Counted from the first letter of the stretch, positions 10,581-27,862 are shown. The stretch is 64,000 bases of DNA from an uncultured Candidatus Saccharibacteria bacterium (GCA_964495425.1 CAZBVG010000002.1:78570-142569); one strand, 5' to 3'. A program made the numbers and translations. The notes: generated by a model not told the origin, from the sequence alone.

Positions 10581-11951
10581 TTATTTCTTATCGATTGTGA
10601 TTCTTTCGAGGGATGTTGGGAACTTGCGTAGCCAGAAAGGACGGATAGAAATATCGGCCTTTTCTATCATCTTGTACTGTGAAAGTATCGTCGGAACATC
10701 TGATCCCGGTTTACCTGCGAGAGCCTGTTTTAGCGCTAGTTCATCATATGTCCATTCAAATGCTGAAGTGCCAGTAAGCGTAAATGAGATGTTGTCTACG
10801 GTTGGTCGGAAGTCGCCTTTTGGTGTGAAGTTTAGTTTATCGAGGTTGGTTATAAGGATAGTTTCACCCTTGTAGTCGCCGATCTGCTGTTTTGCTACGG
10901 CAGCTGAGAGCTTAGCCTTATCAAATATTATTAGTGAGAGTGTGCCCTCTTCTTTTAGAACAACGCTATCACCACTCGCTTCCTCAGGAAGTTGGGCAAA
11001 ATCAATCCGCATAGCCTTATCAAAAAGAATCTGATCATTTGCAACCTGACCTGGAGCCAACTTGGTTAACTCAGCCAATAATTTAGATTCGATAGCTGTC
11101 TTTGCCTTTGCACGATCAGCATCTGCGACAACCTTTTGAATACCTGAAAATCCTCCTGCAAGCGGTGTCTTAGAACGAGCGTAGAATGTTGTGTATCGTG
11201 GATCTCCCTTAAAGCCAGGTATGGTGAAATCCTTTAAGCCGACATTGTACTTTTCTCCCGCTTCATCAGCCGTAACAACAGCTTCAACTGATCCGGGGGT
11301 AGTTCCCTTTTTGCCTGGAACTGTTACAGAATCAGAGATTCGATAAATGAGACCTTCTGGCGTAGAAAAACGAGTGTTTTTAATGAGTCTCTGTGAGGCA
11401 GTGCTGTAGTTATTGTAAATGATGATGGTACCTGTCGCTTTTTTATCAACCTGCTTTTCACCATTTGCTTTAACTGTTTCTGATGCCGTTTGTTTAACAG
11501 TTACCACCTGAAATGGAAGCTCATCACCTGAGGCGTTCTTCTTTGCAACAATCTCAGAGGTTATTGGAAGTGAAAGTGTTCGAGGAAAGACCGTAAGTGT
11601 AGCACCGTGGAAAAGAGTTGAAGTGGCAAAAGCAAGAGCGAGCACAACAAGAATTGCACCAAGCGAATACCAAAGACCAGTTCGTCTCTTACCCGGATTT
11701 CTTGGGGGTTCTTCGTCAGATGTATGTTCTTCAACAAGTGGTTCCGGTTCATGAGGGATAAATTCCTGAACTGGTTCCTTATGAATTTTTACTTTTTGGG
11801 TAAATTCGTCATCTCTATCTAGGGGACGCTCTTTTTTGACAGGTTCTTTGACGACTGGTCGCTCAACAATACGTGGTCGTGACTCAGGGATAGGAATATT
11901 CCTGATTGTTCGACCGTCTTTTGGAACTATGTCTTGCATTTTTCGAGCCAT
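10581..11951 (-). CDS. Hypothetical membrane-anchored protein (charged N-terminus, one TM helix, ~330-aa extracytoplasmic domain)
   Basis: TM segment LWYSLGAILVVLALAFATSTLF. No recognisable catalytic motifs. Immediately downstream of the PilM/FtsA-like gene. Confidence 0.55.
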   Translation of the reverse strand: MARKMQDIVPKDGRTIRNIPIPESRPRIVERPVVKEPVKKERPLDRDDEFTQKVKIHKEPVQEFIPHEPEPLVEEHTSDEEPPRNPGKRRTGLWYSLGAILVVLALAFATSTLFHGATLTVFPRTLSLPITSEIVAKKNASGDELPFQVVTVKQTASETVKANGEKQVDKKATGTIIIYNNYSTASQRLIKNTRFSTPEGLIYRISDSVTVPGKKGTTPGSVEAVVTADEAGEKYNVGLKDFTIPGFKGDPRYTTFYARSKTPLAGGFSGIQKVVADADRAKAKTAIESKLLAELTKLAPGQVANDQILFDKAMRIDFAQLPEEASGDSVVLKEEGTLSLIIFDKAKLSAAVAKQQIGDYKGETILITNLDKLNFTPKGDFRPTVDNISFTLTGTSAFEWTYDELALKQALAGKPGSDVPTILSQYKMIEKADISIRPFWLRKFPTSLERITIDKK

Positions 11952-11968
11952 TTGATTTCAATTATACA

Positions 11969-13177
11969 CTATTTCAATTTTGCTTCGTAGAGTCTGCCGG
12001 CAAATGCTGCCAAAATCGCTACGAAAGGATCCTTGTCTGCATGTTTTCCGAACGTAACGACTGATTTGAGGCTTTCATGATTGATAAGGATCGCGGAAAG
12101 TGAAAAATCGTTTACGCCAAATTCAGAAATTTTTTCATTTCGCAGCACAGTCATAAAGAAATGTACGAAATCGTTGTAGATAATTGCGTACACCGTAGTA
12201 GGAAGAGACATTTTTTCGGAAAGTCTCGTGAGAACATTTCGAAAGCCCTCCATCCATTCTTCCGATGCCTGCGTGATAATCGGTTTGAGTTTTGCCTCCA
12301 CCGCTGGATCGATATGTCCCTCATGATAAAGCTTTACAAGTGACGCTGCTTCCTCTGCTGTTACGCCCATAAGCTTGCCAATACGTCGTACGATGAAATT
12401 TCTGCCTAGAGGAAAGCTTGCGGTTTCCGTGAGAACGCTGTCTTTGACGATAGTAAGATCAGAAACTTCCCCACCGACATCAAGGAGCATGAAATCGCTT
12501 TGATCATGATAGATATCACGAATGATTGAATAGGTTGCCAATGAAAGTGACGAAACGATCGTGTCCTTTGGATGATATGTGGTGATTGAAATATCAAATA
12601 CCTTATCTAAAACAGCCTTTGGGACGATACTTACGAACACAGAGATATCTGCCCGCTTTGCGGTTTTGCCGTATGGTGCAAGAATCTCATATCCATTGAG
12701 CTTTATTTGAACAACTCGCTTTTCTACCGCACGAAGAGCATCTTTTAATTCAGCATCCCCGAGTGTTTCCTGTTCGAATGCCTTTTCTTGGGCATCAATA
12801 ACAGCTGTAACCATATCCTGAGTAAGTGTAAAACCTTCAGGCTTGCTTATGGTAGAGATTTTAGTTTGCGTAACAGCCCAAGGTGATGAAAATACGTAAT
12901 AAACATGCTTTATTTTAAGCTCACCGAATTCTGTAAACTTTAGATGAGTCAGACCTTCCTTTGCGAGGCGTGAATTTACAATTTTGAGTGTGTCGAGCAT
13001 GTCTGAAAAGAATTGCTCGGGATTGAGATTCTCTTGGTAGCGAATAAGCTCTCGCAGCATATAAATAATCTGCGGTAATTCACCTTTATTAAAGCGTACG
13101 AGACCGGCCGCAATAGATGAAGAGCCGATGTGAAGAACAAGACCGAGCTCTGGTTCTGGTCGAAAAAGAGGAGACAT
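11969..13177 (-). CDS. Actin-like ATPase, PilM/FtsA family
   Basis: Phosphate-1-like LVLHIGSSSIAAGLV and phosphate-2-like LLDVGGEVSDLTIV motifs of the actin/Hsp70 fold. Confidence 0.55.
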   Translation of the reverse strand: MSPLFRPEPELGLVLHIGSSSIAAGLVRFNKGELPQIIYMLRELIRYQENLNPEQFFSDMLDTLKIVNSRLAKEGLTHLKFTEFGELKIKHVYYVFSSPWAVTQTKISTISKPEGFTLTQDMVTAVIDAQEKAFEQETLGDAELKDALRAVEKRVVQIKLNGYEILAPYGKTAKRADISVFVSIVPKAVLDKVFDISITTYHPKDTIVSSLSLATYSIIRDIYHDQSDFMLLDVGGEVSDLTIVKDSVLTETASFPLGRNFIVRRIGKLMGVTAEEAASLVKLYHEGHIDPAVEAKLKPIITQASEEWMEGFRNVLTRLSEKMSLPTTVYAIIYNDFVHFFMTVLRNEKISEFGVNDFSLSAILINHESLKSVVTFGKHADKDPFVAILAAFAGRLYEAKLK

Positions 13178-13236: not shown

Positions 13237-15060
13237 TTAGTTAAGAACCGCTTTGATTCGTCGTACCCCAGCTGACACAGCTTCCTCTTTTTGGATTTTG
13301 AATGTACCGAGAATTCCAATGTTTTCAACGTGAGGACCACCGCAGAACTCTTTTGAGTATGCCGACTGCATCGTATCTCCAATATAGTAGACAGAAACAA
13401 TATCGCCGTATTTATCGCCAAAGAAATGAAGGGCACCTGTCTTTTCTGCCTCATCTTTAGGAAGTTCTACACGATGAACGGCCAATTTTGCCTTAATTTT
13501 TGAATTAACAATATCCTCAACCTTCTTTTTTTCCTCATCAGTCATTTTTGCTGTATGGGTAAAGTCGAAACGAAGTCGTTCTGGGGTGATATTTGACCCC
13601 TTTTGAGATACATGCGTCCCCAACACTTCTCGAAGCGCCTGATGAAGCAGATGGGTCGCGGTATGGTATTTAACTGACATTTCTGAGGTATCTCCGAGTC
13701 CGCCTTTAAATTTCTGCTCTGCACCCGCACGAGAAAGATCCTGATGCTTTTTAAATTCGATATCGAATGCTTTTACATCGACTTCAATCCCCTTTTCCTT
13801 TGCAAGTTCCTTGGTTACATCAATCGGCAATCCGTATGATGAAAATAATACAAATGCATCTGAACCCGAAAGAAGCTTGGTGTTTTTGGTGAATTTTTCA
13901 AACTGTACGGTAGCCTGAGAAAGGGCCTGGGCAAATTTATTGCATTCTTCATTAAGAACATGCTTGATATGATCAATTTTTTCTGAAAGTTCTGGGTACG
14001 CCCCTGCATAAGTTGCCACAATAGTATCTACAAAGACGCCAATGCGGTTTTCATCAAGTTTTTTGTCGGTGGTGTTGATTACTGCACGTCGAATGAGACG
14101 GCGGAGGATATATCCGCGATCGGTATTTGAAGGAATCACACCATCAGCTATGAGGAATGTGCTTGCTCGAAGATGATCAGCGATTATTCGCTTATTTTTA
14201 AGATCATTTTGAGCCTTTGCCATGAGATTCATGACCGGTTTCAAAAGATCGGTGTCATAGATGTTGTCTACTCCTTGCAAAGTCATTGTGAGACGCTCGA
14301 GACCGGCACCAGTATCAACGGATGGCTTTGGGAGCTTGCCTATGATCTTTCCGTTTTTCTTTTCATACTGCATGAACACATCGTTCCAGATTTCAATTAC
14401 ATCTCGAACATCGTCAGCTTCTACATACTCTGCATGGGTCAGTGTCTTGCCTCCAAATTTATTAGAAACATCATAAAACATTTCGGTATCAGGCCCGCAT
14501 GGTCCGTTATCACCTGCTTCCCACCAATTATTTTTTGCAGGTAAATAGAATATTCGCCCTGAAGCACCCTTTGTTGTATCACCGCCAAAATCGATCTTAT
14601 GCTTCGTAAATACATCTTTCCAAATTTGTGCAGCCTCATCATCTCGAGGGGCGTTTGCGTCGCCCTCAAAAACAGTCACGTAGAGTCGTTTAGGATCAAG
14701 ACCCAAACCTTCCTCCTTTGATGTGAGAAATTCATAGCTCCATGTTATTGCCTCCTTTTTGAAATAATCACCAAGTGACCAGTTTCCAAGCATTTCAAAG
14801 AATGTCGCGTGGGTTTTGTCACCAATGTCTTCAAGGTCTACCGTACGCATGCATTTCTGAACATCCACCAGACGAGTACCTTTTGGATGAGGTTTTCCAA
14901 GCAAAAATGGCACAAGCGGCTGCATGCCTGCAGTATTAAAGAGCGTCGCGTTTGTTACCCCTTTTTCATCGGGGGTGACGAGACTTGCCGAAGGGATAAC
15001 TGCATGCTGCCTTTTCTCAAAAAAGGCCAAAAAACGCTTACGGACTTCGCTTGATTTCAT
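13237..15060 (-). CDS. alaS: Alanine--tRNA ligase, short form (catalytic + tRNA-recognition + editing domain, no C-Ala domain)
   Basis: AlaRS N-terminal motifs, editing-domain HxxxH (HTATHLLHQALREVLGTH) and CGGPHV. Only 607 aa. Confidence 0.9.
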   Translation of the reverse strand: MKSSEVRKRFLAFFEKRQHAVIPSASLVTPDEKGVTNATLFNTAGMQPLVPFLLGKPHPKGTRLVDVQKCMRTVDLEDIGDKTHATFFEMLGNWSLGDYFKKEAITWSYEFLTSKEEGLGLDPKRLYVTVFEGDANAPRDDEAAQIWKDVFTKHKIDFGGDTTKGASGRIFYLPAKNNWWEAGDNGPCGPDTEMFYDVSNKFGGKTLTHAEYVEADDVRDVIEIWNDVFMQYEKKNGKIIGKLPKPSVDTGAGLERLTMTLQGVDNIYDTDLLKPVMNLMAKAQNDLKNKRIIADHLRASTFLIADGVIPSNTDRGYILRRLIRRAVINTTDKKLDENRIGVFVDTIVATYAGAYPELSEKIDHIKHVLNEECNKFAQALSQATVQFEKFTKNTKLLSGSDAFVLFSSYGLPIDVTKELAKEKGIEVDVKAFDIEFKKHQDLSRAGAEQKFKGGLGDTSEMSVKYHTATHLLHQALREVLGTHVSQKGSNITPERLRFDFTHTAKMTDEEKKKVEDIVNSKIKAKLAVHRVELPKDEAEKTGALHFFGDKYGDIVSVYYIGDTMQSAYSKEFCGGPHVENIGILGTFKIQKEEAVSAGVRRIKAVLN

Positions 15061-15096: not shown

Positions 15097-15519
15097 TTAT
15101 TTGAGGCTAATAAGAAAGATACCTCCGGCAATAAAGAGAGAACCAACCGCGGCCTTCCAACCAAAACTCTCGCCTAGAAAAAGAGCCGCAAAAACCGCTA
15201 CGAATATAATACTTGTTCTATCGATTGCAGAAACTGCTGTTGCGTTGCCATTTTTTAGGGCAAAGAAATAGAAAAGCCATGACAATGCCCCAGCGATACC
15301 CGAGAGCGAAATCATAAGCCACTCTTTTCCGGTGAATGAGGCTAAGCTAAATCCTTGAAACTTCTTGAGAGTTAACGCAACGCAAACCAAGAATGCTGCC
15401 ATTATTATCGAACGGACTGAAGTGGCGAGCGTCGAGTCTAGGTTTTTAAGTCCTATCTTTCCAAAAATCGCTACAAGTGAAGCAAAAAATGCTGACAAGA
15501 ATGCATATACAATCCACAT
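15097..15519 (-). CDS. Small EamA-like/DMT-superfamily membrane protein
   Basis: 140 aa, four predicted TM helices, EamA-like hydrophobic pattern. Confidence 0.55.
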   Translation of the reverse strand: MWIVYAFLSAFFASLVAIFGKIGLKNLDSTLATSVRSIIMAAFLVCVALTLKKFQGFSLASFTGKEWLMISLSGIAGALSWLFYFFALKNGNATAVSAIDRTSIIFVAVFAALFLGESFGWKAAVGSLFIAGGIFLISLK

Positions 15520-15523
15520 GCAC

Positions 15524-17281
15524 CTATTGTATACCAGCGGTCAATTTTTCCAACTGATCAATATCCTTGTCTATCGATGCGAGACCCTTTTCCCAAAAAT
15601 GAGGCTTTGTGACATCTATACCAATAGATTTAAAGATATTTTCTGGCGAGTCACTACCTCCAGCAGATAAGAATTTGTTTATTTTTTCGATATACGTTTT
15701 ATCTTCCTTATACTTTGCATAGAGCGCCTTTGAAATAAGCTGTCCGAAGGCATATGAATATACATAAAAGAATCGACGAATATGGCTCCACGAAACAAAA
15801 TGGTTTCCATCAAGTGGTTGCATTTTCATAATAGGACCTAGATATGAAGCCATGTGCTTGTTTAGCATTTCTCCAATTTCCTCTCGAGTTACTGCGCCCT
15901 TTTTACGAATTGTCGTATGAAGCTCTCTCTCAAAATTAAAACAGGCAATTTGGCGGAAAATAGTTTGAATGTCATCATTAATTTTTTTGTGAAGCGCAAG
16001 AATCTTTTCTTTATGGGAAAGCTTCTCAAAGACCGCATCAAAAACCATTGATTCAAAAAAGGTGCTGGCAACTTCGGCAGTAGAGGTTGTGTAATTTTGA
16101 TATAACGCTGTCTGCGCTTTTGAAAATTCGGTATGAATAGCATGCCCCATCTCATGAGCGAATGTCATTACCTGATCCATGCTGTTTGTGTAATTTAGAA
16201 GTACAAATGTCGGTACATTGGTACCCCCTCCGCAATATGCACCGTCTGTCTTTCCTATTTTTGGAAACACATCTATCTGTCCGTTCTCTAAAAATGTTTC
16301 AAGTATAGACAAATAACGCTTGTCTGCAGAACCAAACACGTCTTTTAAAATACCAGCAGCCTCTTCAAATGTAATTTCTTTTGTATTTTCACCGATACCC
16401 ACTGCGCGATCAGAATATTCTAGATGAGGAAGTTTAAGTAATTTTGCTTTGAGATTATAAAATCTATGGCTGATTGAGTATCGTTTCGTAACAGCGGAAA
16501 CAAGCGCAAGGACACTCTTCGCATCATTTTGGTAGCCTAAAACAGTGGCATCGTAAGGCTCTTTGAATCCTCTTAACTCATCGTTGATCTTTTTATCAGT
16601 AGCAATGGCATTAATTTCGCTTTCTGCGATTTCACTTACGCCCTTGAGAGTATTCATGACTGCTGCGTGGAGTTCACGACGTTCCTTGAGTGGCAATTCA
16701 TGAATTTTACTAGACGCTTCGCCCAAAGGCATTTTTTTACCCTTATATGTGACAACCTGTTTATTCAAAATTTTATCTGTTGCAGTGATCCAGTGCACAT
16801 ACGCTGGAATTGATTTAAGTCCGAGAATTTTTTCCTCTGATTCAGAAAGGTCATGCTTTGCTCGGCGGAAAACTGTATAAAGGTAATACGAGTAATGAGA
16901 AAGTTTCTTACTTTTTAGAAATTTCTTCTGTAGTGTAGCCGGAATTTTTGCTAACGAAAGCTCAAAGAAAACCACTTTGTTCTCATTTAACTGAAGCCGA
17001 GACATGAGCTTGGAAGACATCGCGCGAGATTCAGCATCATTAAAGAGATCCATGTGATAATGGAAGTACATAAGAGGCTTTGAAAGAGGATTTTGTTCAA
17101 AAATTGCCTCAAAATCGCTTAGCGCCTGAAGCAGTTTTGACTCATTTTTAAGATACGCTGATGTGCCCTTATACTTTTTTTCAAATTTAGAGTAGGCAGC
17201 CTCAAATGCCTTAACATCCTTTTCAATGTGAGGGTCAGTATGGCTTTTATAGAGCAAAGCAAGGTTCCAGGTGGTCTGCAT
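15524..17281 (-). CDS. pepF: Oligoendopeptidase F (M3 family zinc metallopeptidase)
   Basis: HEXXH zinc motif HEMGHAIH and M3B-like length and organisation. Confidence 0.85.
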   Translation of the reverse strand: MQTTWNLALLYKSHTDPHIEKDVKAFEAAYSKFEKKYKGTSAYLKNESKLLQALSDFEAIFEQNPLSKPLMYFHYHMDLFNDAESRAMSSKLMSRLQLNENKVVFFELSLAKIPATLQKKFLKSKKLSHYSYYLYTVFRRAKHDLSESEEKILGLKSIPAYVHWITATDKILNKQVVTYKGKKMPLGEASSKIHELPLKERRELHAAVMNTLKGVSEIAESEINAIATDKKINDELRGFKEPYDATVLGYQNDAKSVLALVSAVTKRYSISHRFYNLKAKLLKLPHLEYSDRAVGIGENTKEITFEEAAGILKDVFGSADKRYLSILETFLENGQIDVFPKIGKTDGAYCGGGTNVPTFVLLNYTNSMDQVMTFAHEMGHAIHTEFSKAQTALYQNYTTSTAEVASTFFESMVFDAVFEKLSHKEKILALHKKINDDIQTIFRQIACFNFERELHTTIRKKGAVTREEIGEMLNKHMASYLGPIMKMQPLDGNHFVSWSHIRRFFYVYSYAFGQLISKALYAKYKEDKTYIEKINKFLSAGGSDSPENIFKSIGIDVTKPHFWEKGLASIDKDIDQLEKLTAGIQ

Positions 17282-17282
17282 A

Positions 17283-17876
17283 TTATGTGTATTTCTTTAC
17301 AATTTTAAAATCGTTCAAAAGTTCTGCCCTCATTCCTCCGTTGTATAAGGCTACAGCTGGGTGATATAAAGCTATCACAATGACTTCACCATATAAAGTT
17401 TTTGCTTTGAATTCTTTACCATGAATTTTCGAAATTACGTTTAGGTCTGCTGCGATGCCATAGTTTTCGAAAATATATTTCATGGAATGACGGCCCAAGG
17501 TAACGATTGCTTTTGGTTTTAAAATTTCAATCTGTTGTTTAAGAAATGGGCCATATAAAGCAATTTCTGAGGTACTCGGGTCTCGATTCTCCGGAGGACG
17601 ATCCTTAACAAGATTTGTTATATACACTTTGGATCGATCCATCTGTATGGATGCTAACAGTTCATCTAAAAACTTTCCTGATCTGCCACAGAATGGTCTA
17701 CCTGACTTGGCTTCGTTTTCTCCCGGTGCTTCGCCGACAAACATTATATTAGCCTCACAATTTCCTTCCCCAATCACGGGAATATAATTATGTTCTTTAC
17801 GAAACTGGTACAGAGGAGATTGCGTTAAATGCAGTAGTTCGTTACTGATTTGTGTAAGTCTATCGGCATTAGTCAT
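17283..17876 (-). CDS. Uracil-DNA glycosylase, family 4
   Basis: GEAPGENEAKSGRPFCGRSGKFLD and HPAVALYN motifs typical of family-4 UDG. Start probably the ATG at 17876 rather than the ORF-track start at 17906, because a terminator hairpin lies upstream of it. Confidence 0.8.
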   Translation of the reverse strand: MTNADRLTQISNELLHLTQSPLYQFRKEHNYIPVIGEGNCEANIMFVGEAPGENEAKSGRPFCGRSGKFLDELLASIQMDRSKVYITNLVKDRPPENRDPSTSEIALYGPFLKQQIEILKPKAIVTLGRHSMKYIFENYGIAADLNVISKIHGKEFKAKTLYGEVIVIALYHPAVALYNGGMRAELLNDFKIVKKYT

Positions 17877-17895
17877 GGGCAAAGTATAACAAAAT

Positions 17896-17921
17896 AAAAA
17901 ACTCACCCGGCAATCGGGTGA
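17896..17921 (-). terminator. Hairpin CACCCG-GCAA-CGGGTG + T-run on minus, overlapping the stop codon of the 130-aa ORF
   Basis: Stem-loop followed by TTTTTTATTTT on the minus strand. Confidence 0.4.
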
Positions 17922-18295
17922 GTGAGATGAATTCGTTTTTTGCTCAGTCTATGAAGACGAACAAAATACTTCATGACTCTCTCAGCGGTCGGAAATTGTT
18001 CAGCGAACGCTTCCGGACCTCCGTTTTCCGTCCAATGCTTAACAACTTCCTCTCGTGTTACAGGCCGATTGTATGAAAGACCGGCCAAATACACGCTGTT
18101 AGGATCTTGACTGAAGTACTCCTGTGCAACGGAACGAATAAACGAGCCGCGACAGTTTGATTCTTGCTGAAGTCTGGTTACCTCAGCTTTCAATTGGGCA
18201 ATTTCGTTTTCAAGTTGAATAATTCGAGACTTATCGTTGAAATGGAGCACTTGCCCCACGTCGATACTGACAGGGTCATTGGTCTGCGGAATCAT
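17903..18295 (-). CDS. Hypothetical protein (130 aa)
   Basis: ORF in operon orientation between ogt and UDG. Coiled-coil-like N-terminal segment. No motif recognised. Confidence 0.45.
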   Translation of the reverse strand: MIPQTNDPVSIDVGQVLHFNDKSRIIQLENEIAQLKAEVTRLQQESNCRGSFIRSVAQEYFSQDPNSVYLAGLSYNRPVTREEVVKHWTENGGPEAFAEQFPTAERVMKYFVRLHRLSKKRIHLTHPIAG

Positions 18296-18366
18296 ATCAA
18301 GTAAGGGGTTTACAATCTACCCATATAGTGAACCTCAGAGCCCGAAAAAGCTAGTAAGTTATTCAC

Positions 18367-18666
18367 CTATGGCATACTTACACCTTCAGATTGCAGAAGC
18401 GCAACCTTTGCTTTGCTTCCCTTTGTACCACCCCGAATACCGTTGTAGCCTCCTACATGGCCATCTGAACGAATAACTCGGTGGCAAGGTATGGATAGAT
18501 CAGTATTGCGTGACATGATCATGCCGACCGCCCGAGCACCATGAGGACTTCCCGCACGCAAAGCAACATCACGATACGTTAGTGTTGCGCCAGATGGTAT
18601 GTTGCGAACGATATGTTCTACTTTCTCTTTAAAGGAGACTTGCTGTTTTGTTGCTTGATTCGTCAT
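18367..18666 (-). CDS. ogt: Methylated-DNA--protein-cysteine methyltransferase, minimal single-domain form (~99 aa)
   Basis: MGMT active-site motif PCHRVI plus HTH region (TYRDVALRAG…). I placed the start at the internal ATG (18666) preceded by an AAGAAAAAAG stretch. It overlaps the upstream gene by 38 nt. Confidence 0.7.
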   Translation of the reverse strand: MTNQATKQQVSFKEKVEHIVRNIPSGATLTYRDVALRAGSPHGARAVGMIMSRNTDLSIPCHRVIRSDGHVGGYNGIRGGTKGSKAKVALLQSEGVSMP

Positions 18667-19477
18667 CTTTTTTCTTGGTAGTTTTCTTTTCGCTCTTATC
18701 TTCAGACTTCTTGGCTGGTTTCGCAAATTTTGCCTGGACTTCCATAGCCAATTTTCGATAGTTGCAATACTCACATAATGTTCCTGGTTGAGGAAGTTCT
18801 TCTTTATCAAGACAGTCCTTGGCGTTGAGGATGGTCTTTTCAACCCAATCGTCTGAACCCGTATACGGAATGAGTGTGACTTCGAATTCTAACTTTCCAT
18901 CGAATGCTTTCTTATCACGTAGACCATTTGCATACACAAAATAACCAGTATCTGAGACCTTAAATCCCTTTCGACGCAATAACCATTGATACACCTCCAT
19001 TTGTCGCTTATATCCATCCTGCCACTCCGCATCGAGATTTACTTTTTCATCCTTAGACGTTGACTTGTAGTCAACTACAATAAGCTCTCCTTTTGGATTA
19101 ACCCACACGTCGTCAACGGCACCGCTAATAAGAAGTCCGGATTTGTCATGTCTGTATTGAATACCTTCAAAATTTTCACGCCACGTATTCATATCAGCGT
19201 GGGCAAACGGTATTGCATCAACACCGTATTCTGTCATAAGCGGATGCGAGGTTTTTGCAATACGATGCGCATCGAATTCCTTTTTTAAAAGATGATCAAC
19301 GGCAGAGTTAAGATTAAACGGAAAACCCTTTGGTCGAGAGACGCCAAGTTTATTATCAACATAAAAACATCTTGGGCACTCAACAAAAAGATCGATTTTT
19401 GATCGAGATAGTTTCCATTTTGAGCCGCCGTAATTCCAATCGGCGCTTCGCTTGCCTTTTAAAGGAAATGCTCCCAT
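18629..19477 (-). CDS. PD-(D/E)xK nuclease, Cas4/RecB-like, with 2+2 cysteines (putative Fe-S)
   Basis: N-terminal CPRCFY (Cas4-like CPRxFY), motif II GAVDDVW, motif III IVVDYKS, QxxxY (RQMEVYQW), C-terminal CEYC. Lys-rich acidic tail. Confidence 0.6.
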   Translation of the reverse strand: MGAFPLKGKRSADWNYGGSKWKLSRSKIDLFVECPRCFYVDNKLGVSRPKGFPFNLNSAVDHLLKKEFDAHRIAKTSHPLMTEYGVDAIPFAHADMNTWRENFEGIQYRHDKSGLLISGAVDDVWVNPKGELIVVDYKSTSKDEKVNLDAEWQDGYKRQMEVYQWLLRRKGFKVSDTGYFVYANGLRDKKAFDGKLEFEVTLIPYTGSDDWVEKTILNAKDCLDKEELPQPGTLCEYCNYRKLAMEVQAKFAKPAKKSEDKSEKKTTKKKDDESSNKTASLL

Positions 19478-19478
19478 G

Positions 19479-20312
19479 TTATTTGCACACGTTTATTACT
19501 TCCTCGATTACGGTATCTATTTTTCCTTTTTCAATACCGTAATCCGCCAGCTTATCTTTATGCTCAAGAAGATGCTTGCAAAGAATCATGCCCGCATCCA
19601 ATAACGACTTCTTTTCAGTTTGGGTTAATGTCAAAAGAGATGTAAGTGGATGAAGTTTTGCTTCATTGATTAAATCCTCAAGGTTTCCCTCTGCTGGATA
19701 ATTCCATCCAACCAATGATAGACCCTGACACTCGGCATACCTAATAGCATGATCTGTGAATTTTGTATTTGTAAAAAGTTGAAAAGAAGTCACTTTGCGT
19801 TTTTTGCCACCATATTCATGAACACTATTTTTCAAATCATCAAAACGTGCCCGTATGTAAAGTGCCACCTTAAGATCAGATTTAAGCCCAGGTTCATTGT
19901 GGAATTTGGCCTCAATAATGGAAAGTTTATCTCCCTTCCATGCAACAACATCTACCTCATGCTCTACGCAATTACCTTCAATAATTTGACCTGTAACTGC
20001 TTCATAACCTTTTGCTTTAAAAATTTCAGCAATAAGCTTTTCAAAAGGAAAGCCGCTTGGACCAAGATCCGCAATAGCTCTCTTCATTGAATAGCGCGCC
20101 GCAACGGGCTTTGCATCCTGTCTCAGAATCTCAAAAGCATGTTTATATATCTCAGAAGTTGGTATGCCATTTACAAGCTCTTTTTGAATATGGTCTGCAA
20201 TCCGATTAGCTTCTGAATCACTTGCTCCTGCCTTCCGCAAAGAAAGAATGAGTTTTGCAGGCACGAATACCTCCTGCTCACCAGTAGATTTAAGTACAAG
20301 AATATGTGTCAT
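19479..20312 (-). CDS. ATP-cone domain fused to Mrr-like (PD-(D/E)xK) restriction endonuclease domain
   Basis: N-terminal ~85 aa matches the ATP-cone pattern (VLKSTGEQEVFVPAKLILSLRKAG…). This is followed by an Mrr_cat-like core (FEKLIAEIFKAKGYEAV…VDVVAW…SIIEAKF). Confidence 0.6.
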   Translation of the reverse strand: MTHILVLKSTGEQEVFVPAKLILSLRKAGASDSEANRIADHIQKELVNGIPTSEIYKHAFEILRQDAKPVAARYSMKRAIADLGPSGFPFEKLIAEIFKAKGYEAVTGQIIEGNCVEHEVDVVAWKGDKLSIIEAKFHNEPGLKSDLKVALYIRARFDDLKNSVHEYGGKKRKVTSFQLFTNTKFTDHAIRYAECQGLSLVGWNYPAEGNLEDLINEAKLHPLTSLLTLTQTEKKSLLDAGMILCKHLLEHKDKLADYGIEKGKIDTVIEEVINVCK

Positions 20313-20334: not shown

Positions 20335-21381
20335 TTATTTCACGATACCTCCTCCAAGACACACATCACCTTCATATACTACGACCGACTGACCAGGTGC
20401 AATTACAAGCGACTCATTAAAAATGATGTGAGAGCCCTCAATAGCGCAGGGTAAAAGCGCTCCAAGGTGACGAATTCGTGCTTTATAGCTTGATCCCGGT
20501 GTTGGTTTTGTTGATATCCAATTTATAGAATCAAGCTGGAATTTCTTTTTTTCAATTGAAAGTTCACCATGTGATGATTTGTGAGAAACAGTAAGAGTGT
20601 TCTTTTCAAGATCTCGAGAAACAATATAATACGGCAAATCCTCAGGTGACTTAGTAGTGATAGTAAAACCGTGTCGCTCACCAAGTGTATGGAATACTGC
20701 CCCGTCATGCTCGCCTATGATTGCGCCCTTTTCATCAAGCACATTTCCCTTTTTTGCCTCGACGTAATGAGATAAGAATTCCTTCATACTTACCTTACCA
20801 ATAAAACAAAGTCCCTGGCTATCCTTTTTTTGAGCAACAGGAAGACCGTATTGTGCGGCAAGCTTTCTGGTATCAATTTTCTCCATGTCACCGACTGGGA
20901 AAAGTGTTTTTAAAAGATGCTCTGAGGTAAGAGTCCACAAAAAATACGTTTGATCCTTTCCATGATCTACGCCGGAAAGCAATTTCCCATGTTTTGATTG
21001 AGCATAATGACCTGTTGCTACATAGTCAGCGCCATTTTCCATTGCCCACTTATAAAATCCACCAAATTTCACATACTTGTTGCACATAACATCTGGATTT
21101 GGAGTTCGGCCAGCCTTATATTCAGAAATCATGTAATCAACAACCTCCTTTTTATATTCCTTTTCTAAATCAAGCGTAATAAACGGAATTCCGAGATGAA
21201 CACACACACGCATAGCATCAAGCCGATCTTCCTTCCAGGTACACTCATACCATTCAGGCTGCCAAACCTTTATAAATACACCAGTTACGTCAAAACCCTG
21301 CTTTTTAAGCAGTGCAGCAGAAACAGAGGAATCAACCCCTCCAGACATACCTACATATACTTTTTTGGAACCAGCGTTCAT
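20335..21381 (-). CDS. mnmA: tRNA-specific 2-thiouridylase MnmA
   Basis: PP-loop SGGVDSS, MnmA-like catalytic cysteines and length. Confidence 0.9.
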   Translation of the reverse strand: MNAGSKKVYVGMSGGVDSSVSAALLKKQGFDVTGVFIKVWQPEWYECTWKEDRLDAMRVCVHLGIPFITLDLEKEYKKEVVDYMISEYKAGRTPNPDVMCNKYVKFGGFYKWAMENGADYVATGHYAQSKHGKLLSGVDHGKDQTYFLWTLTSEHLLKTLFPVGDMEKIDTRKLAAQYGLPVAQKKDSQGLCFIGKVSMKEFLSHYVEAKKGNVLDEKGAIIGEHDGAVFHTLGERHGFTITTKSPEDLPYYIVSRDLEKNTLTVSHKSSHGELSIEKKKFQLDSINWISTKPTPGSSYKARIRHLGALLPCAIEGSHIIFNESLVIAPGQSVVVYEGDVCLGGGIVK

Positions 21382-23756: not shown

Positions 23757-24785
23757 TTATACAATCGAGTAGCGACCCTCTTTGTCTTTCTTGAAGTACT
23801 TTGGGTTCTGAAGATTAACGAGGATAGTGTTTTCCTTAACATATCGCTCCTTCATAACTTTATCGATAACTTCCTTTTTGGTGAGTGGTCCGTTCTTTTC
23901 AATTACTTTCTTGATAACGTCCTTAACTACACCTGACATGTAACCCCATTCTGAGAGTGCGTAGAGTCCTCGGCCAACAAGAACGAATCGAGGATCCTTA
24001 ATAAGCTCGTTGTGGGTTGTTGCAACATGAGCCTTCTTGTTAAACATTTTTTCAATCTGCTTCGCTACTTCTCGGAAGTGGATTGGAGAACCGTGCTTTC
24101 GGATAACGAGGAACGCGTAGTCTCGCATACCTTTTGCCTTGATGTTTGGAGACTGAGATACACCCCATTCGCCGAGTGGATTCTTGCCCACCTTCTTTGA
24201 TAGAGAGAGCCATCGCTTGAGAATCTCATCATTTCGATATGTGTCATTGAGGCCTTCGATATGATTTAGGAACGTATCAATCATTTCTGATTCAGGAATG
24301 ATGTCATCATCCTTGAGGTTTTTATAAAGCTTTTTAAGTGCCTCTTCAACCTTTTTTGAGGTTGCCTCATCTACATGCCATCGGTGCTTGAAATGATCAT
24401 CTTCCTTCTGCCACTTGAACGCTCGGCCAAGTACGAGGAGGAAATAAATGTGATTTTGGATTGATGGATCCTTTGAAACACTGTCCAAGAGATCTTCTTC
24501 TGCCATAACGCCACCCATCTCAGTCATCATTGCTTCGAGCTCTTTAAACGCCACATTCTGAGCCTCATATTCCTTTGATTTCTGGATGTTTGAGATAGCG
24601 TAGTTTTCAATCTGTCGAACGCGCTCTCGAGTGATGCCATAGGTCTTTCCGATAGCCTCAAGAGTCATTTTTGAAGGCTCTTTCCCAAGGCCATATCGCT
24701 TAATGATAACCTCCTGAGCACGATCAGGAAGACTCTTTAGAAGAGCCTTTACTACCTGCTTAGGTTTGAGCGTGAGCGTAGTCAT
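23757..24785 (-). CDS. Sigma-70 region-4-like HTH protein with ~250-aa C-terminal domain of unknown function
   Basis: Residues ~15-70 match sigma-70 region 4 (…QEVIIKRYGLGKEPSKMTLEAIGKTYGITRERVRQIENYAISNI…). No regions 1-3. Confidence 0.6.
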   Translation of the reverse strand: MTTLTLKPKQVVKALLKSLPDRAQEVIIKRYGLGKEPSKMTLEAIGKTYGITRERVRQIENYAISNIQKSKEYEAQNVAFKELEAMMTEMGGVMAEEDLLDSVSKDPSIQNHIYFLLVLGRAFKWQKEDDHFKHRWHVDEATSKKVEEALKKLYKNLKDDDIIPESEMIDTFLNHIEGLNDTYRNDEILKRWLSLSKKVGKNPLGEWGVSQSPNIKAKGMRDYAFLVIRKHGSPIHFREVAKQIEKMFNKKAHVATTHNELIKDPRFVLVGRGLYALSEWGYMSGVVKDVIKKVIEKNGPLTKKEVIDKVMKERYVKENTILVNLQNPKYFKKDKEGRYSIV

Positions 24786-24898: not shown

Positions 24899-27862
24899 CT
24901 ACCGTACTACGATTGAAACAAGTTTGCCTGGTACCACGATAATTTTCTCTGGCTGTTTCCCTTCTAACCATTTTTTAACATCTGGAAGCGCCAAGGCCTT
25001 TTGCTCAATTTCACTTTTTCCTGCTGTTTTTGCTGCTTCAAAGGTACCTCTTACTTTTCCATTTACCTGGACAACAATCGTAACTGACTCACTCACAAGC
25101 TTTGACTCATCTACCATTGGCCACTCTGACGTGTGGATTGATTTCTTGTTTCCAAGCATACTCCACAACTCCTCAGTTACATGAGGAGCAAGGGGTGCTA
25201 AAAGTTTAAGAAATGCCTCATAGAAATTCTTTGAAAGCGCTCCAGCCTTCTCCATTTCGTTCGAGAGGATCATTAGCGAGCTTACAGCCGTATTGTGTCG
25301 AAGGGTAGCAATATCATCAGTGACTTTTTTGATTGTTTTGTGGAGCAAGACATCGAGTTCATTACTCATCTGCGCATCCTTAGAGACTTTTTCAGATAAT
25401 TTCCAAACACGTTCTAAGAATCTGCGTGAACCGAGAATACCTGAGGTTGACCATGCAATTGCCTGATCGAAAGGACCCATGAACATCTCGTACACACGGA
25501 GAGTGTCCGCACCATATGTTTCAACAATGGTGTCAGGATTAACAACATTTCCAAAACGCTTCGACATTTTTCGGCCATCCTCACCCATAATAAGACCTAC
25601 CGACTGAAGTTTCTTGAAAGGCTCAGTCGTTGAGACTGCACCGATATCATATAGAAACTTGTGCCAGAATCGCGCATAAATCAAATGACGCGTTGCATGC
25701 TCTGCACCACCAACATAGAAATCAACTTGGTTCCAATATTTTTCTTTTTTCGTATCAACAAGTGATTTGGTATTTGCAGGATCCATATAACGAAGGTAAT
25801 ACCACGAAGAACCTGCCCATTGAGGCATAGTATTTGTTTCCCGTTTAAGAATCCTTGAATTCTTTCCTTTTCCAACTCTCACATATACCCATTTATCGAT
25901 TGCGGCTAAAGGAGATTCGCCGGTGCCAGTCGGTTCGTATGATTTAACCTTAGGTAGTGTAACCGGAAGATCCTTTTCACTTACCGAGACAATTTCGTGC
26001 GGCATGATGGATTCCAACTTTGCCCATAACGCATGAGCCTCCTTCCCGTTTTTTGAATTGAAATGACCAAAGCCATCCCACTCTTCAATCTTCCACGTTG
26101 AAGGAAGCTCACCGTGAGTTTCAGCCTGAACATACGGATCATCCTTTGAACGAATGAGCGTTATATTTGGTGTATACGTTGTTATCTGTTTGTAATCCAA
26201 AGGTTCCTGCCAAAACTTTTTAAGTGCAGGAATATCTGATTTTTGATCCTCTTTTTGCATTGATTCCCAATGCTTTTCGCTTCGTACGCGTCCTACCGCG
26301 CTAGCTACAAGGAAAAGGTGCCCGATATTACGTTTTGTTGTAGAAACTAAACGCAAGGCAGCATTTGATCCAAGGCTGTGCCCTACAATCAGGTCATCTG
26401 GACCGAAATTTTTTACCAGCGGTTCTAGTTCATTCATCCACGATTCAACCGTTGGGTGTTTCGATGTAGAAATAGTTGGATTAAATACCTCAACTCCCCG
26501 CTCTTCAAGAATCTGTTTAAGTTTTTTAAACCAGTGGTTAGTGCCATTACCCTCAAATCCATGAATAAGAAGAGCTTTTTTGGCTTTAAGTCCTTGTAGA
26601 AGAGGAAAAGGTTCGCCCCAGTAACGCTGTCGTGAGAACACCCAATCCTTAAGCTTGTACTTAACTACCCACTTACCACCAACTGATTCTGTGATCTTTT
26701 TTCGCGCATCTGTTGATTTCATGCCAGTAAAAGCACCCGAATCAATGAGTGTGTCCTGTTCATCAATAACCACCTTACTCATAAGGCTAAATTTTTGAGC
26801 AAACTGTTCATCTCTTTCATCGTGAGCAGGAACAGCCATCACTGCACCCGTTCCGTATTCAGCAAGTACATAATCTGCTACAAATACAGGTACTTCCTCA
26901 TTATTAGCTGGATTGATCGCGAAAACACCCTCAAGCTTTATACCTGTTTTATCTTTCTTAGCATCAGTTCTTTCAATCTCAGTCATTACGCGAGCCGAGG
27001 CAACATACTTAATGACTTCCGCATGATTCTTTATATTTTCCTTATGCTTAAGTATCTCAGTTACAAACGTGTGCTCAGGAGCAACAACTACATACGTAAC
27101 ACCGAAAAGTGTATCTGGCCGTGTAGTAAATACTTTAAGTTTTTCACCTCTACCTTTAATAGCAAAATCAATTTCAGCTCCCTCTGAACGACCGATCCAA
27201 TTTCGCTGTGATTCCTTTATTGATTCCGGCCAATCGAGCCCATCAATATCTTTCAAAAGTCGATCAGCATACTCAGTGATTTTAAGAACCCACTGTCGCA
27301 TCGGCTTCTTTTCAACTGGAGTACCGCAGCGTTCGCACTTTCCATCCTCCACATCCTCATTAGCTAAGCCTGTTTTACATGAAGGACACCAATTAATTGG
27401 TTCATATGACTCATACGCTAGTCCTTTTTCTAATAGCTTAAGGAAAATCCACTGTGTCCATTTGTAAAATTTTGGATCTGTCGTATTAACCTCTCGCGCC
27501 CAGTCGTAATCAAAACCAATAATTTCAAGCTGCTTTTTATATCGAGCGACGTTCTTGGCAACCGAATCCATGGGATTAGTTTTTGTTTTGATGGCATAGT
27601 TTTCAGCCGGCAAGCCAAAAGCATCAAATCCCATTGGATGAAGTACATTAAAGCCAGCCATCCTTTTCTGACGAGCTACAATATCAGTGGCGATGTAGCC
27701 TTTTGGATGACCAACATGGAGCCCTTCACCTGAAGGGTATGGAAACATATCAAGAATATAAAACTTCGGTTTTTTAAATGAATCCTCTGTCTTATAAACT
27801 TTTGTCTTCTCCCACTCCTTCTGCCACTTCTTTTCTATTTTTCTGTGATCGTATTGAGTCAT
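24899..27862 (-). CDS. leuS: Leucine--tRNA ligase carrying an inserted serine-hydrolase (alpha/beta hydrolase, RBBP9/YdeN-like) domain
   Basis: HIGH (HVGHP), CP1 editing region (TTRPDT…AHDERD), DWVFSRQRYWGEPFP, KMSKR, conserved C-terminus (VQVNGKVRG…VVPGKLVSIVV). About 200 extra aa between RYWGEPFP and the SSWYY motif contain GHSLG plus Asp/His. Confidence 0.9.
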   Translation of the reverse strand: MTQYDHRKIEKKWQKEWEKTKVYKTEDSFKKPKFYILDMFPYPSGEGLHVGHPKGYIATDIVARQKRMAGFNVLHPMGFDAFGLPAENYAIKTKTNPMDSVAKNVARYKKQLEIIGFDYDWAREVNTTDPKFYKWTQWIFLKLLEKGLAYESYEPINWCPSCKTGLANEDVEDGKCERCGTPVEKKPMRQWVLKITEYADRLLKDIDGLDWPESIKESQRNWIGRSEGAEIDFAIKGRGEKLKVFTTRPDTLFGVTYVVVAPEHTFVTEILKHKENIKNHAEVIKYVASARVMTEIERTDAKKDKTGIKLEGVFAINPANNEEVPVFVADYVLAEYGTGAVMAVPAHDERDEQFAQKFSLMSKVVIDEQDTLIDSGAFTGMKSTDARKKITESVGGKWVVKYKLKDWVFSRQRYWGEPFPLLQGLKAKKALLIHGFEGNGTNHWFKKLKQILEERGVEVFNPTISTSKHPTVESWMNELEPLVKNFGPDDLIVGHSLGSNAALRLVSTTKRNIGHLFLVASAVGRVRSEKHWESMQKEDQKSDIPALKKFWQEPLDYKQITTYTPNITLIRSKDDPYVQAETHGELPSTWKIEEWDGFGHFNSKNGKEAHALWAKLESIMPHEIVSVSEKDLPVTLPKVKSYEPTGTGESPLAAIDKWVYVRVGKGKNSRILKRETNTMPQWAGSSWYYLRYMDPANTKSLVDTKKEKYWNQVDFYVGGAEHATRHLIYARFWHKFLYDIGAVSTTEPFKKLQSVGLIMGEDGRKMSKRFGNVVNPDTIVETYGADTLRVYEMFMGPFDQAIAWSTSGILGSRRFLERVWKLSEKVSKDAQMSNELDVLLHKTIKKVTDDIATLRHNTAVSSLMILSNEMEKAGALSKNFYEAFLKLLAPLAPHVTEELWSMLGNKKSIHTSEWPMVDESKLVSESVTIVVQVNGKVRGTFEAAKTAGKSEIEQKALALPDVKKWLEGKQPEKIIVVPGKLVSIVVR
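26003..26596 (-). other. In-frame serine-hydrolase-like domain insertion within leuS (residues ~423-620)
   Basis: LLIHGFEGNGTNHWF…DLIVGHSLGSNAALRL…RSKDDPYV…WDGFGHFN resembles the YdeN/RBBP9 Ser_hydrolase family with a Ser-Asp-His triad. Confidence 0.6.

Follow-up and report, generated by a model that had tools for sequence, protein, structure and literature searches.

A likely DNA-maintenance gene cluster with two highly conserved nucleases in the core chromosome of Paceibacteria

Introduction

Do two different PD-(D/E)xK nucleases encoded next to two enzymes acting on damaged bases form a repair operon, a stress-induced nuclease module or an uncharacterised defence island? The question is raised by a locus on CAZBVG010000002.1 (positions 78570-142569; assembly GCA_964495425.1, deposited as an uncultured Candidatus Saccharibacteria bacterium). 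This whole stretch of 64,000 nucleotides (nt) is referred to below as the window, and positions are counted from its first letter. Between mnmA and pepF the window carries genes for an ATP-cone fused to an Mrr-type nuclease (hereafter the ATP-cone nuclease), a Cas4-like nuclease, a single-domain O6-alkylguanine-DNA alkyltransferase (MGMT), a protein of 130 amino acids (aa; hyp130) and a uracil-DNA glycosylase (UDG). Both this gene list and the three options above come from a reading of the sequence alone, the original prediction. A six-frame listing of open reading frames (ORFs) and the annotation of the flanks confirm five minus-strand ORFs in a row from 17283 to 20312, and profile searches in Pfam, NCBIfam and PADLOC upheld every domain call. 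The explanation we favour is a vertically inherited DNA-maintenance cluster within a long co-directional core gene array of Paceibacteria, rather than a mobile or defence island. We regard it as likely, if well short of certain.

Results

The block occupies a conserved position in the core chromosome

Named homologues place the window in Paceibacteria (Patescibacteria; Candidate Phyla Radiation, CPR) and, judged by its sequence, it is core chromosome of a bacterium with a tiny genome. The 64 kb encode rpoB, rpoC, dnaG, uvrA, uvrB, dnaK, leuS, alaS and ychF, nearly all on one strand. The GC content across the block (0.38-0.46) is similar to that of the flanks, with no island-like base composition.

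When one genome per GTDB species was scanned, relatives of the ATP-cone nuclease turned up in 508 genomes, and gene order was compared in 80 of these 508 loci (10-kb flanks) using tblastn with 13 window proteins. Strand and order are constant along a shared backbone consisting of leuS, a sigma70_r4/HARE-HTH gene, DUF8128, mltG, mnmA, the ATP-cone nuclease gene, a variable slot and alaS. The mnmA gene lies upstream of the ATP-cone nuclease gene on the same strand in 76 of the 80 loci; alaS was found downstream in 64 and pepF in 32. The content of the slot was counted in the 70 loci having at least 1.5 kb of downstream sequence. A family-4 UDG gene (UDG4) is present there in 45 loci, MGMT in 22 and the Cas4-like gene in 27, in all of which it directly follows the ATP-cone nuclease gene. 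The order ATP-cone nuclease, Cas4-like, MGMT, UDG4, peptidase, alaS is seen again across Paceibacteria, down to ATP-cone nuclease identities of 43-47%. Distant Cas4-like homologues extend this picture, five of six lineages showing the ATP-cone nuclease gene, zero to two inserted genes, the Cas4-like gene and MGMT. The sixth lineage, a Nomurabacteria contig, differs in that its Cas4-like gene lies between genes for an RNase-H-fold exonuclease and a pyrimidine 5'-nucleotidase. In some lineages an ORF of ~239 aa with no Pfam family separates the two nuclease genes (L085:5165-5884, L093:5228-5944).

Both nucleases are conserved like their essential neighbours mnmA and alaS: across loci, the ATP-cone nuclease averages 57% identity and the Cas4-like protein 69%, compared with 59% in mnmA and 60% in alaS. 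The original prediction had left room for the five genes being scattered individually in related genomes; their order is kept across Paceibacteria, so the proposed linkage is not refuted. It is, however, leaky, with the Cas4-like gene placed behind the ATP-cone nuclease gene in no more than 27 of 70 loci and with unrelated peptidases and a transporter also occupying the slot.

From mnmA to pepF, successive genes of the window are separated by 22 nt, 1 nt, a 38-nt overlap, 71 nt, 26 nt and 1 nt. The 1-nt gap between the two nuclease genes is found again in relatives, as is an overlap of 30-50 nt between the Cas4-like gene and MGMT. The presence of these last two genes is associated (odds ratio 9, p 1e-4, uncorrected for phylogeny); that of MGMT and UDG4 is not significantly so (p 0.18). 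At one locus (L015:10773-11702) a single 309-aa ORF fuses MGMT (PF01035, aa 35-118) to UDG4 (PF03167, aa 148-296). Elsewhere the slot houses genes for ExoIII-family, NUDIX and HD/YfbR-like 5'-deoxynucleotidase proteins. The recurring gap and overlap, the fusion, the Cas4-like/MGMT association and the recruitment of repair or nucleotide-sanitation genes to the slot are together signs of real coupling.

The first nuclease combines an ATP-cone with an AF1548-type catalytic domain

The prediction of an ATP-cone fused to an Mrr-like nuclease held. The Pfam models PF03477 (ATP-cone) and Mrr_cat score above their cutoffs (28.4 against 25.8 and 26.3 against 21, respectively), and aa 92-272 of the protein align with Archaeoglobus fulgidus AF1548 (PDB 1y88; E 2e-29, 34% identity). 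The AF1548-like_C model (PF22357) scores 21.5, just below its cutoff of 23.9, and reaches 25.1 in the Pontibacter homologue. The AlphaFold2 (AF2) model has a mean predicted local distance difference test (pLDDT) value of 83.6; Foldseek aligned it best with 1y88 (template modelling (TM) score 0.76), then with Can2, Card1 and Cdn1. Its N-terminal domain superposes on the ATP-cones of NrdR and ribonucleotide reductase (RNR) with a root-mean-square deviation of ~2.0 Å (74-79 residues for E. coli NrdR). The catalytic residues are intact, D121, E134 and K136 being invariant in the alignment, and the cone residues K8, K20, T52, Y56 and H58 are conserved. With regard to the Mrr type, the Mrr_cat domain is present, the N-terminus is an ATP-cone rather than a winged-helix Mrr_N domain, and a patchy mobile distribution is not seen, the gene occupying a core-like fixed locus in 76 of 80 species.

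The window protein has the PD-(D/E)xK core and the C-terminal helical domain in common with AF1548, whereas the solved AF1548 chain lacks the N-terminal ATP-cone. We know of no function for AF1548. It was predicted in 2007 to be a restriction-type nuclease (PMC1821046), and the D, E and K of the ATP-cone nuclease would align with its predicted catalytic residues if a 13-residue numbering offset is assumed. Literature searches on the ATP-cone nuclease, AF1548, Patescibacteria Cas4, clamp-binding Cas4 and CPR UDG returned no characterisation beyond that 2007 prediction.

In NrdR and RNR, ATP or dATP at the cone sets activity or oligomeric state. The window protein shares their cone fold, whereas its output domain is a nuclease instead of a zinc-ribbon repressor or a reductase. 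A functional analogy exists with Can2, Card1 and Cdn1; in Can2 and Card1 a small-nucleotide sensor is likewise followed by a PD-(D/E)xK nuclease. Their sensor is a CARF domain, whereas that of the window protein is an ATP-cone, without a link to CRISPR or cyclic-oligoadenylate signalling.

Full-length homologues of 39-60% identity occur outside CPR. A gene for a beta-CASP/RMMBL metallo-beta-lactamase (MBL) nuclease (aCPSF1/Cas14-like) lies immediately behind them on plasmids of Pontibacter and Criblamydia and in about half of 80 loci from metagenomes. An archaeal-type thymidine/AMP phosphorylase gene and a Prs homologue come next in 8-10 of the 41 such loci with sufficient flank. Operons of the non-CPR kind are found at L094:1972-6597, at L095:5995-10602 and in ~40 of the loci L104-L183. 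None of the non-CPR loci carries a Cas4-like gene, MGMT, UDG, mnmA or alaS; the window and the 80 CPR loci, for their part, yielded no gene for a beta-CASP protein, a phosphorylase or Prs. Bradyrhizobium induces its MBL, Prs and phosphorylase genes under microoxic conditions (PMC6515984). The operon context outside CPR, taken with the cone, suggests that the activity of the nuclease may be set by the adenine-nucleotide pool.

The second nuclease belongs to the RecB/Cas4 family and bears a variable tail

Cas4-like motifs had been claimed for the second nuclease. The RecB catalytic motifs and the nuclease family are borne out; the cutoffs of the Cas4 models are missed and the cysteine pattern appears to be a different one. 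PF12705 (PDDEXK_1) scores 55.8 bits (cutoff 22), whereas TIGR00372 and PF01930 remain at 36.8 against 65 and 22.1 against 22.7. In the alignment, the RecB-type motifs D122/D123, D136-Y-K138 and Q159...Y163 are invariant, as are the cysteines of C34xxC37 and C235xxC238, while C222 is kept at 90%. The canonical Cas4 pattern is one N-terminal cysteine followed by CxxCx5C. Judging from these positions, a metal site is plausible, either Fe-S or Zn. The AF2 model (pLDDT 79.9) finds its best Foldseek matches in the PDB among Cas4, MGME1, AdnAB nuclease domains, EXO5 and SSO0001, and on this modelled fold the protein is predicted to be a RecB/Cas4-family end-processing nuclease.

The fold, the motifs (D, DxK, QxxxY) and cysteines at both termini, which would staple the fold, are shared with Cas4, EXO5, MGME1 and AddB-AdnAB. 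Cas4 has the arrangement C...CxxCx5C, whereas the window protein has CxxC...CxxC and, in addition, a lysine-rich, disordered extension whose (S/T)LF tip is conserved. More than 8000 homologues (63-89% identity) were found across CPR lineages. Unlike CRISPR Cas4, the family is CPR-wide and highly conserved, and the window holds no CRISPR array. The score, the context (no array in the 64 kb, with no search aimed at cas1 or cas2) and what looks like a different cysteine pattern led us to reject a CRISPR Cas4 identity.

The last 38 nt of the Cas4-like gene, which encode part of this tail, overlap the start of MGMT. The tail is hypervariable in both sequence and length; an xL[FL] terminus is nevertheless present in 88 of 120 homologues (SLF, TLF, GLF, SLL, QLF), and some of the other termini read SLGL. 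The tip was found in 25 of 30 copies in a housekeeping context and in none of the eight copies in a defence context next to Ppl-like genes (Fisher p 2.6e-5; see below). Since it persists in copies that do not overlap MGMT, it is a signal of the protein itself, not a consequence of overlapping reading frames. Known bacterial clamp-binding motifs are of the types QL[SD]LF and QLxLxL. Set against these beta-clamp motifs, the tail offers a terminal (S/T/Q)L(F/L) after a disordered linker, the leading Q-L not being conserved. By this resemblance, the tip is a candidate clamp- or hub-docking motif.

MGMT retains its acceptor cysteine and the UDG has lost its Fe-S ligands

MGMT was rightly described as a 99-aa single-domain protein with an intact PCHR motif. 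It matches PF01035 (DNA_binding_1) at 87.9 bits and TIGR00589 at 70.3 (cutoff 46.4), the active site reads IPCHRVI with Cys61 at nt 18484-18486, and 22 of 24 syntenic homologues likewise retain PCHR. The C-domains of Ada, Ogt and AGT in the PDB match at E 1e-10 and Atl1 (3gva) more weakly at E 4e-6. The window protein aligns only to residues ~70-165 of the solved Ogt/AGT chains; it shares the C-terminal DNA-binding and active-site domain of Ogt, Ada-C and AGT, whereas their canonical N-terminal domain is absent. Alkyltransferase-like (ATL) proteins such as Atl1 and YbaZ are of similar size and lack the acceptor cysteine. An ATL identity was rejected because the window protein retains this residue in PCHR, rather than having PWHR or PAHR.

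The assignment of the glycosylase to family 4 stands on profile score and motifs, with the reservation that all Fe-S ligands of the family are replaced. TIGR00758 scores 192.7 bits (cutoff 125.3), PF03167 gives E 1e-32, the archaeal equivalog NF040953 stays at 209.6, below its cutoff of 250, and the Sulfolobus tokodaii family-4 UDG (PDB 4zbx) matches at E 2.5e-49. Motifs A and B are present as GEAPG (within GEAPGENE) and HPA (within YHPAVAL). In an alignment to 4ZBX, all four [4Fe-4S] cysteine positions are occupied by L, S, D and Y, and all of the 41 syntenic homologues (L001-L080) show identical replacements. The profile and motifs are thus common to the window UDG, Thermus thermophilus UDGA and S. 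tokodaii UDG, whereas the [4Fe-4S] cysteines belong to the latter two only. No description of a UDG clade with L, S, D and Y at these positions was found in the literature searched. Mutagenesis of family-4 enzymes has shown that cluster loss reduces activity only partly (PMC5295032); by analogy, the clusterless window UDG is probably active. Its start codon is most likely ATG 17876 and not GTG 17906, because independent gene callers choose the former and the latter sits inside a predicted terminator hairpin.

An orphan gene ends in a predicted terminator

The 130-aa protein was presented as an unknown and is an orphan in all three family libraries: hyp130 matched no family in Pfam, NCBIfam or PADLOC, returning coiled-coil noise only. 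A coiled coil spans its aa 17-47, and its C-terminal region is conserved. Its relatives amount to two clusters in 5.8 billion proteins and, in a hidden Markov model search, eight representatives in 1.84 billion, none of them annotated. Divergent homologues lie between MGMT and UDG at five loci (L007, L010, L018, L021, L089). An intrinsic-terminator-like hairpin (dG -15.9 kcal/mol, z -4.9; none of 200 shuffles folds equally well) covers the end of the gene. The same hairpin ends a 61%-identical homologue (L089:6369-6403), overlapping the last codons, HP[IV]AG-stop. As it lies over the last hyp130 codons and is kept in that homologue, RNA structure and coding constraint coincide here. With a terminator after hyp130, the block in this genome probably comprises two transcription units, as read from the sequence. 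The gene looks like a lineage-specific insertion, confined to the slot and bringing its own terminator.

Defence models, mobile elements and CRISPR arrays

A comparison of the five proteins with defence models was run with PADLOC. It gave single-protein matches, namely Cas4 models on the Cas4-like nuclease and weak matches to ZorD-Mrr (E 1e-4), CARF-PDDEXK and PDC-S02 on the ATP-cone nuclease; for the five proteins PADLOC-DB 2.0 found no multi-gene system and no partner genes. The ATP-cone nuclease had no match in 50,697 phage records (tblastn) and none in IMG/VR viral contigs, and its plasmid matches are two only, both in metabolic operons. A mobile-element reading was rejected on these grounds. 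The remark that no CRISPR array lies near the Cas4-like gene proved correct for the whole 64 kb, searched with Tandem Repeats Finder (TRF) and for direct repeats, with no search aimed at cas1 or cas2. In every CPR locus examined, the annotated neighbours of the Cas4-like gene are repair or housekeeping genes.

The Cas4-like gene has eight matches on IMG/VR contigs, all tail-less and of 61-66% identity. These contigs carry mltG or restriction-modification (R-M) and Ppl-like genes and look like fragments of cellular or defence loci, not phage replication modules. In the two of these loci that were examined (L097:2089-5693, L102:2144-5690) the tail-less Cas4-like gene comes directly after a gene for a ~930-aa PHP/ABC-ATPase (SMC-type) protein, matched by the PADLOC Ppl model at 98-129 bits, and L097 additionally has a type IIG R-M gene upstream of the pair. 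The Ppl-like and tail-less Cas4-like pair may be a two-gene defence variant.

Features of the block and neighbouring genes

The coordinates of the block, its domains and its flanking genes are given in Table 1.

Table 1. Features of the five-gene block and its flanks in the window
Feature	Position (nt)	Strand	Remarks
mnmA (tRNA 2-thiouridylase), upstream anchor	20335..21381	(-)	precomputed Pfam; 22 nt from ATP-cone nuclease gene
ATP-cone + AF1548/Mrr-type PD-(D/E)xK nuclease	19479..20312	(-)	277 aa
ATP-cone	20073-20300		aa 5-80
Nuclease core	19710-20054		aa 87-201
AF1548-like C-terminal helical domain	19488-19610		aa 235-275
Cas4/RecB-family PD-(D/E)xK nuclease	18629..19477	(-)	282 aa
Cas4-like C-terminal tail	18632..18709	(-)	aa 257-282; disordered, lysine-rich, ending SLL; pLDDT ~33
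Single-domain MGMT	18367..18666	(-)	99 aa
hyp130	17903..18295	(-)	130 aa, orphan
Intrinsic-terminator-like hairpin	17891..17923 (hairpin 17901-17923)	(-)	9-bp stem, 6 GC pairs, then TTTTTATTTT; spans hyp130 stop codon
UDG ORF	17283-17906	(-)	likely start ATG 17876, giving gene 17283..17876, 197 aa
pepF (M3 oligoendopeptidase), downstream neighbour	15524..17281	(-)	1 nt past UDG
EamA gene, after pepF	15097-15519		
alaS, downstream anchor after EamA gene	13237-15060		

Three other observations concern the surroundings. The Sigma70_r4 and HARE-HTH protein (window 23757-24785, minus strand, 342 aa) is the product of the most conserved gene of the neighbourhood, with 62-97% identity in 61 loci. LeuRS (window 24899-27862, minus strand, 987 aa) contains a PF06821 Ser_hydrolase insert after the editing domain (aa 431-608, 69 bits), and Ser_hydrolase and/or NUDIX insertions are present in LeuRS of relatives (L092:1-221, L081:10941-12807). 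Past alaS lie two adjoining minus-strand ORFs, 10581-11951 and 11969-13177, of 456 and 402 aa, which match no Pfam family at E 1e-5; at the syntenic position in L089 there is a weak FtsA match.

Discussion

What the locus shows is known repair families in an arrangement typical of the lineage, embedded in a frozen core synteny. If it is indeed a vertically inherited DNA-maintenance cluster, the ancestral order of the clade would have been mnmA, ATP-cone nuclease, Cas4-family nuclease, MGMT, UDG4, peptidase and alaS, from which individual genes would have been lost and into which small genes such as hyp130 with its terminator would have been inserted. The UDG would remove uracil without an Fe-S cluster, and MGMT would reverse O6-alkylguanine via suicide transfer to Cys61. 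The Cas4-family enzyme may act as a metal-cluster-stapled 5'-end-processing exonuclease. Through its flexible lysine-rich tail and (S/T)LF tip it would be brought to the replication clamp, or to some other hub, to process flaps, gaps or ends once bases have been excised. Allosteric gating is proposed for the ATP-cone nuclease, ATP or dATP at the cone setting activity or oligomeric state as in NrdR and RNR, and could in this way couple nucleic-acid cleavage to the nucleotide pool.

Several observations weigh against this explanation. The slot also takes M3, M29, M13, M16 and S9 peptidases and the EamA transporter, each repair gene can be dispensed with singly at this position (43 of 70 loci lack the Cas4-like gene, 48 of 70 lack MGMT), and a strong terminator divides the five-gene block. 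In organisms outside CPR, the genes linked to the ATP-cone nuclease belong to RNA and nucleotide catabolism, not repair. Tail-less Cas4-like relatives have Ppl-like ATPase genes and a type IIG R-M gene as neighbours, which suggests that the family can serve defence. Moreover, the synteny reaches tRNA synthetases, so that the order may reflect the frozen order of a streamlined genome and not function. Five independent housekeeping genes might then stay together simply because the order of a streamlined co-directional chromosome is conserved, a possibility to which we give a real but minor share of belief. It would account for the conserved order over more than 15 kb (including leuS, the sigma-like gene, DUF8128, mltG, mnmA and alaS), for peptidases and a transporter in the slot, for genes lost independently of each other, for a terminator inside the block and for the non-significant association of MGMT with UDG4. 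It leaves aside the MGMT-UDG4 fusion in one genome, the conserved Cas4-like/MGMT overlap, the 1-nt gap between the nuclease genes and the repeated recruitment of ExoIII-family, NUDIX and HD genes to the slot, all of which argue for the DNA-maintenance cluster.

CPR bacteria generally have minimal repair, are not known to synthesise nucleotides de novo and rely on scavenging them. The gated ATP-cone nuclease and the Cas4-like enzyme could accordingly serve salvage, degrading imported or damaged nucleic acid to mononucleotides, with UDG and MGMT as mere neighbours. The beta-CASP/RMMBL MBL, phosphorylase and Prs genes beside non-CPR homologues, the Nomurabacteria Cas4-like gene between exonuclease and nucleotidase, the HD/YfbR-like 5'-deoxynucleotidase and NUDIX genes of the CPR slot and the structural likeness of the ATP-cone nuclease to the ligand-gated Can2, Card1 and Cdn1 all point in this direction. 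We nevertheless consider salvage unlikely: the beta-CASP, phosphorylase and Prs genes are absent from the window and the 80 CPR loci, the conserved partners in CPR are repair genes, and a tail that may bind the clamp speaks for replication or repair, not for bulk degradation. A defence or stress-nuclease island, with a solo Cas4 and an Mrr-type nuclease bearing a nucleotide sensor directed against phage or foreign DNA, would fit the Mrr_cat domain, the weak ZorD-Mrr and CARF-PDDEXK matches, the Cas4 models on the second nuclease, the tail-less relatives adjoining Ppl-like PHP-ATPase and type IIG R-M genes on IMG/VR contigs, and a logic of sensor and nuclease like that of CARF effectors. It is disfavoured because the chromosomal position is fixed, in a core-genome setting shared by more than 70 species, because conservation is core-like, equalling or exceeding that of mnmA and alaS, and because the ATP-cone nuclease showed no copies in the phage and viral records searched, its two plasmid copies lying in a metabolic operon. 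The PADLOC matches concern single proteins, there are no mobility genes and no GC anomaly, and no CRISPR array was detected (cas1 and cas2 were not specifically searched). We therefore judge a defence island very improbable, and among the three options of the original prediction it is the repair operon that is favoured, with partial support, while the island options are not supported.

For annotation, the DNA-maintenance cluster would mean that the orphan 'cas4' and 'restriction endonuclease' entries at this Patescibacteria locus are conserved housekeeping genes, which removes a false defence lead. It also draws attention to a pair of uncharacterised nucleases of very high conservation: an AF1548-type enzyme, putatively gated by its ATP-cone, and a Cas4-family enzyme whose tail is a candidate for clamp binding. 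A bolder proposal, which we hold to be a long shot, is that the nucleotide-pool-gated nuclease and a clamp- or hub-tethered Cas4-family exonuclease form an unrecognised nucleic-acid processing system at the core of Paceibacteria. If true, the breakdown of DNA or RNA would be tied to ATP/dATP levels in nucleotide-scavenging organisms, and the system would be a housekeeping counterpart of the ligand-activated CARF nucleases, while its relatives outside CPR would be connected to a pathway of beta-CASP RNase, AMP phosphorylase and Prs. Finally, a clade of family-4 UDGs without the Fe-S cluster bears on the purpose of that cluster in the family as a whole.

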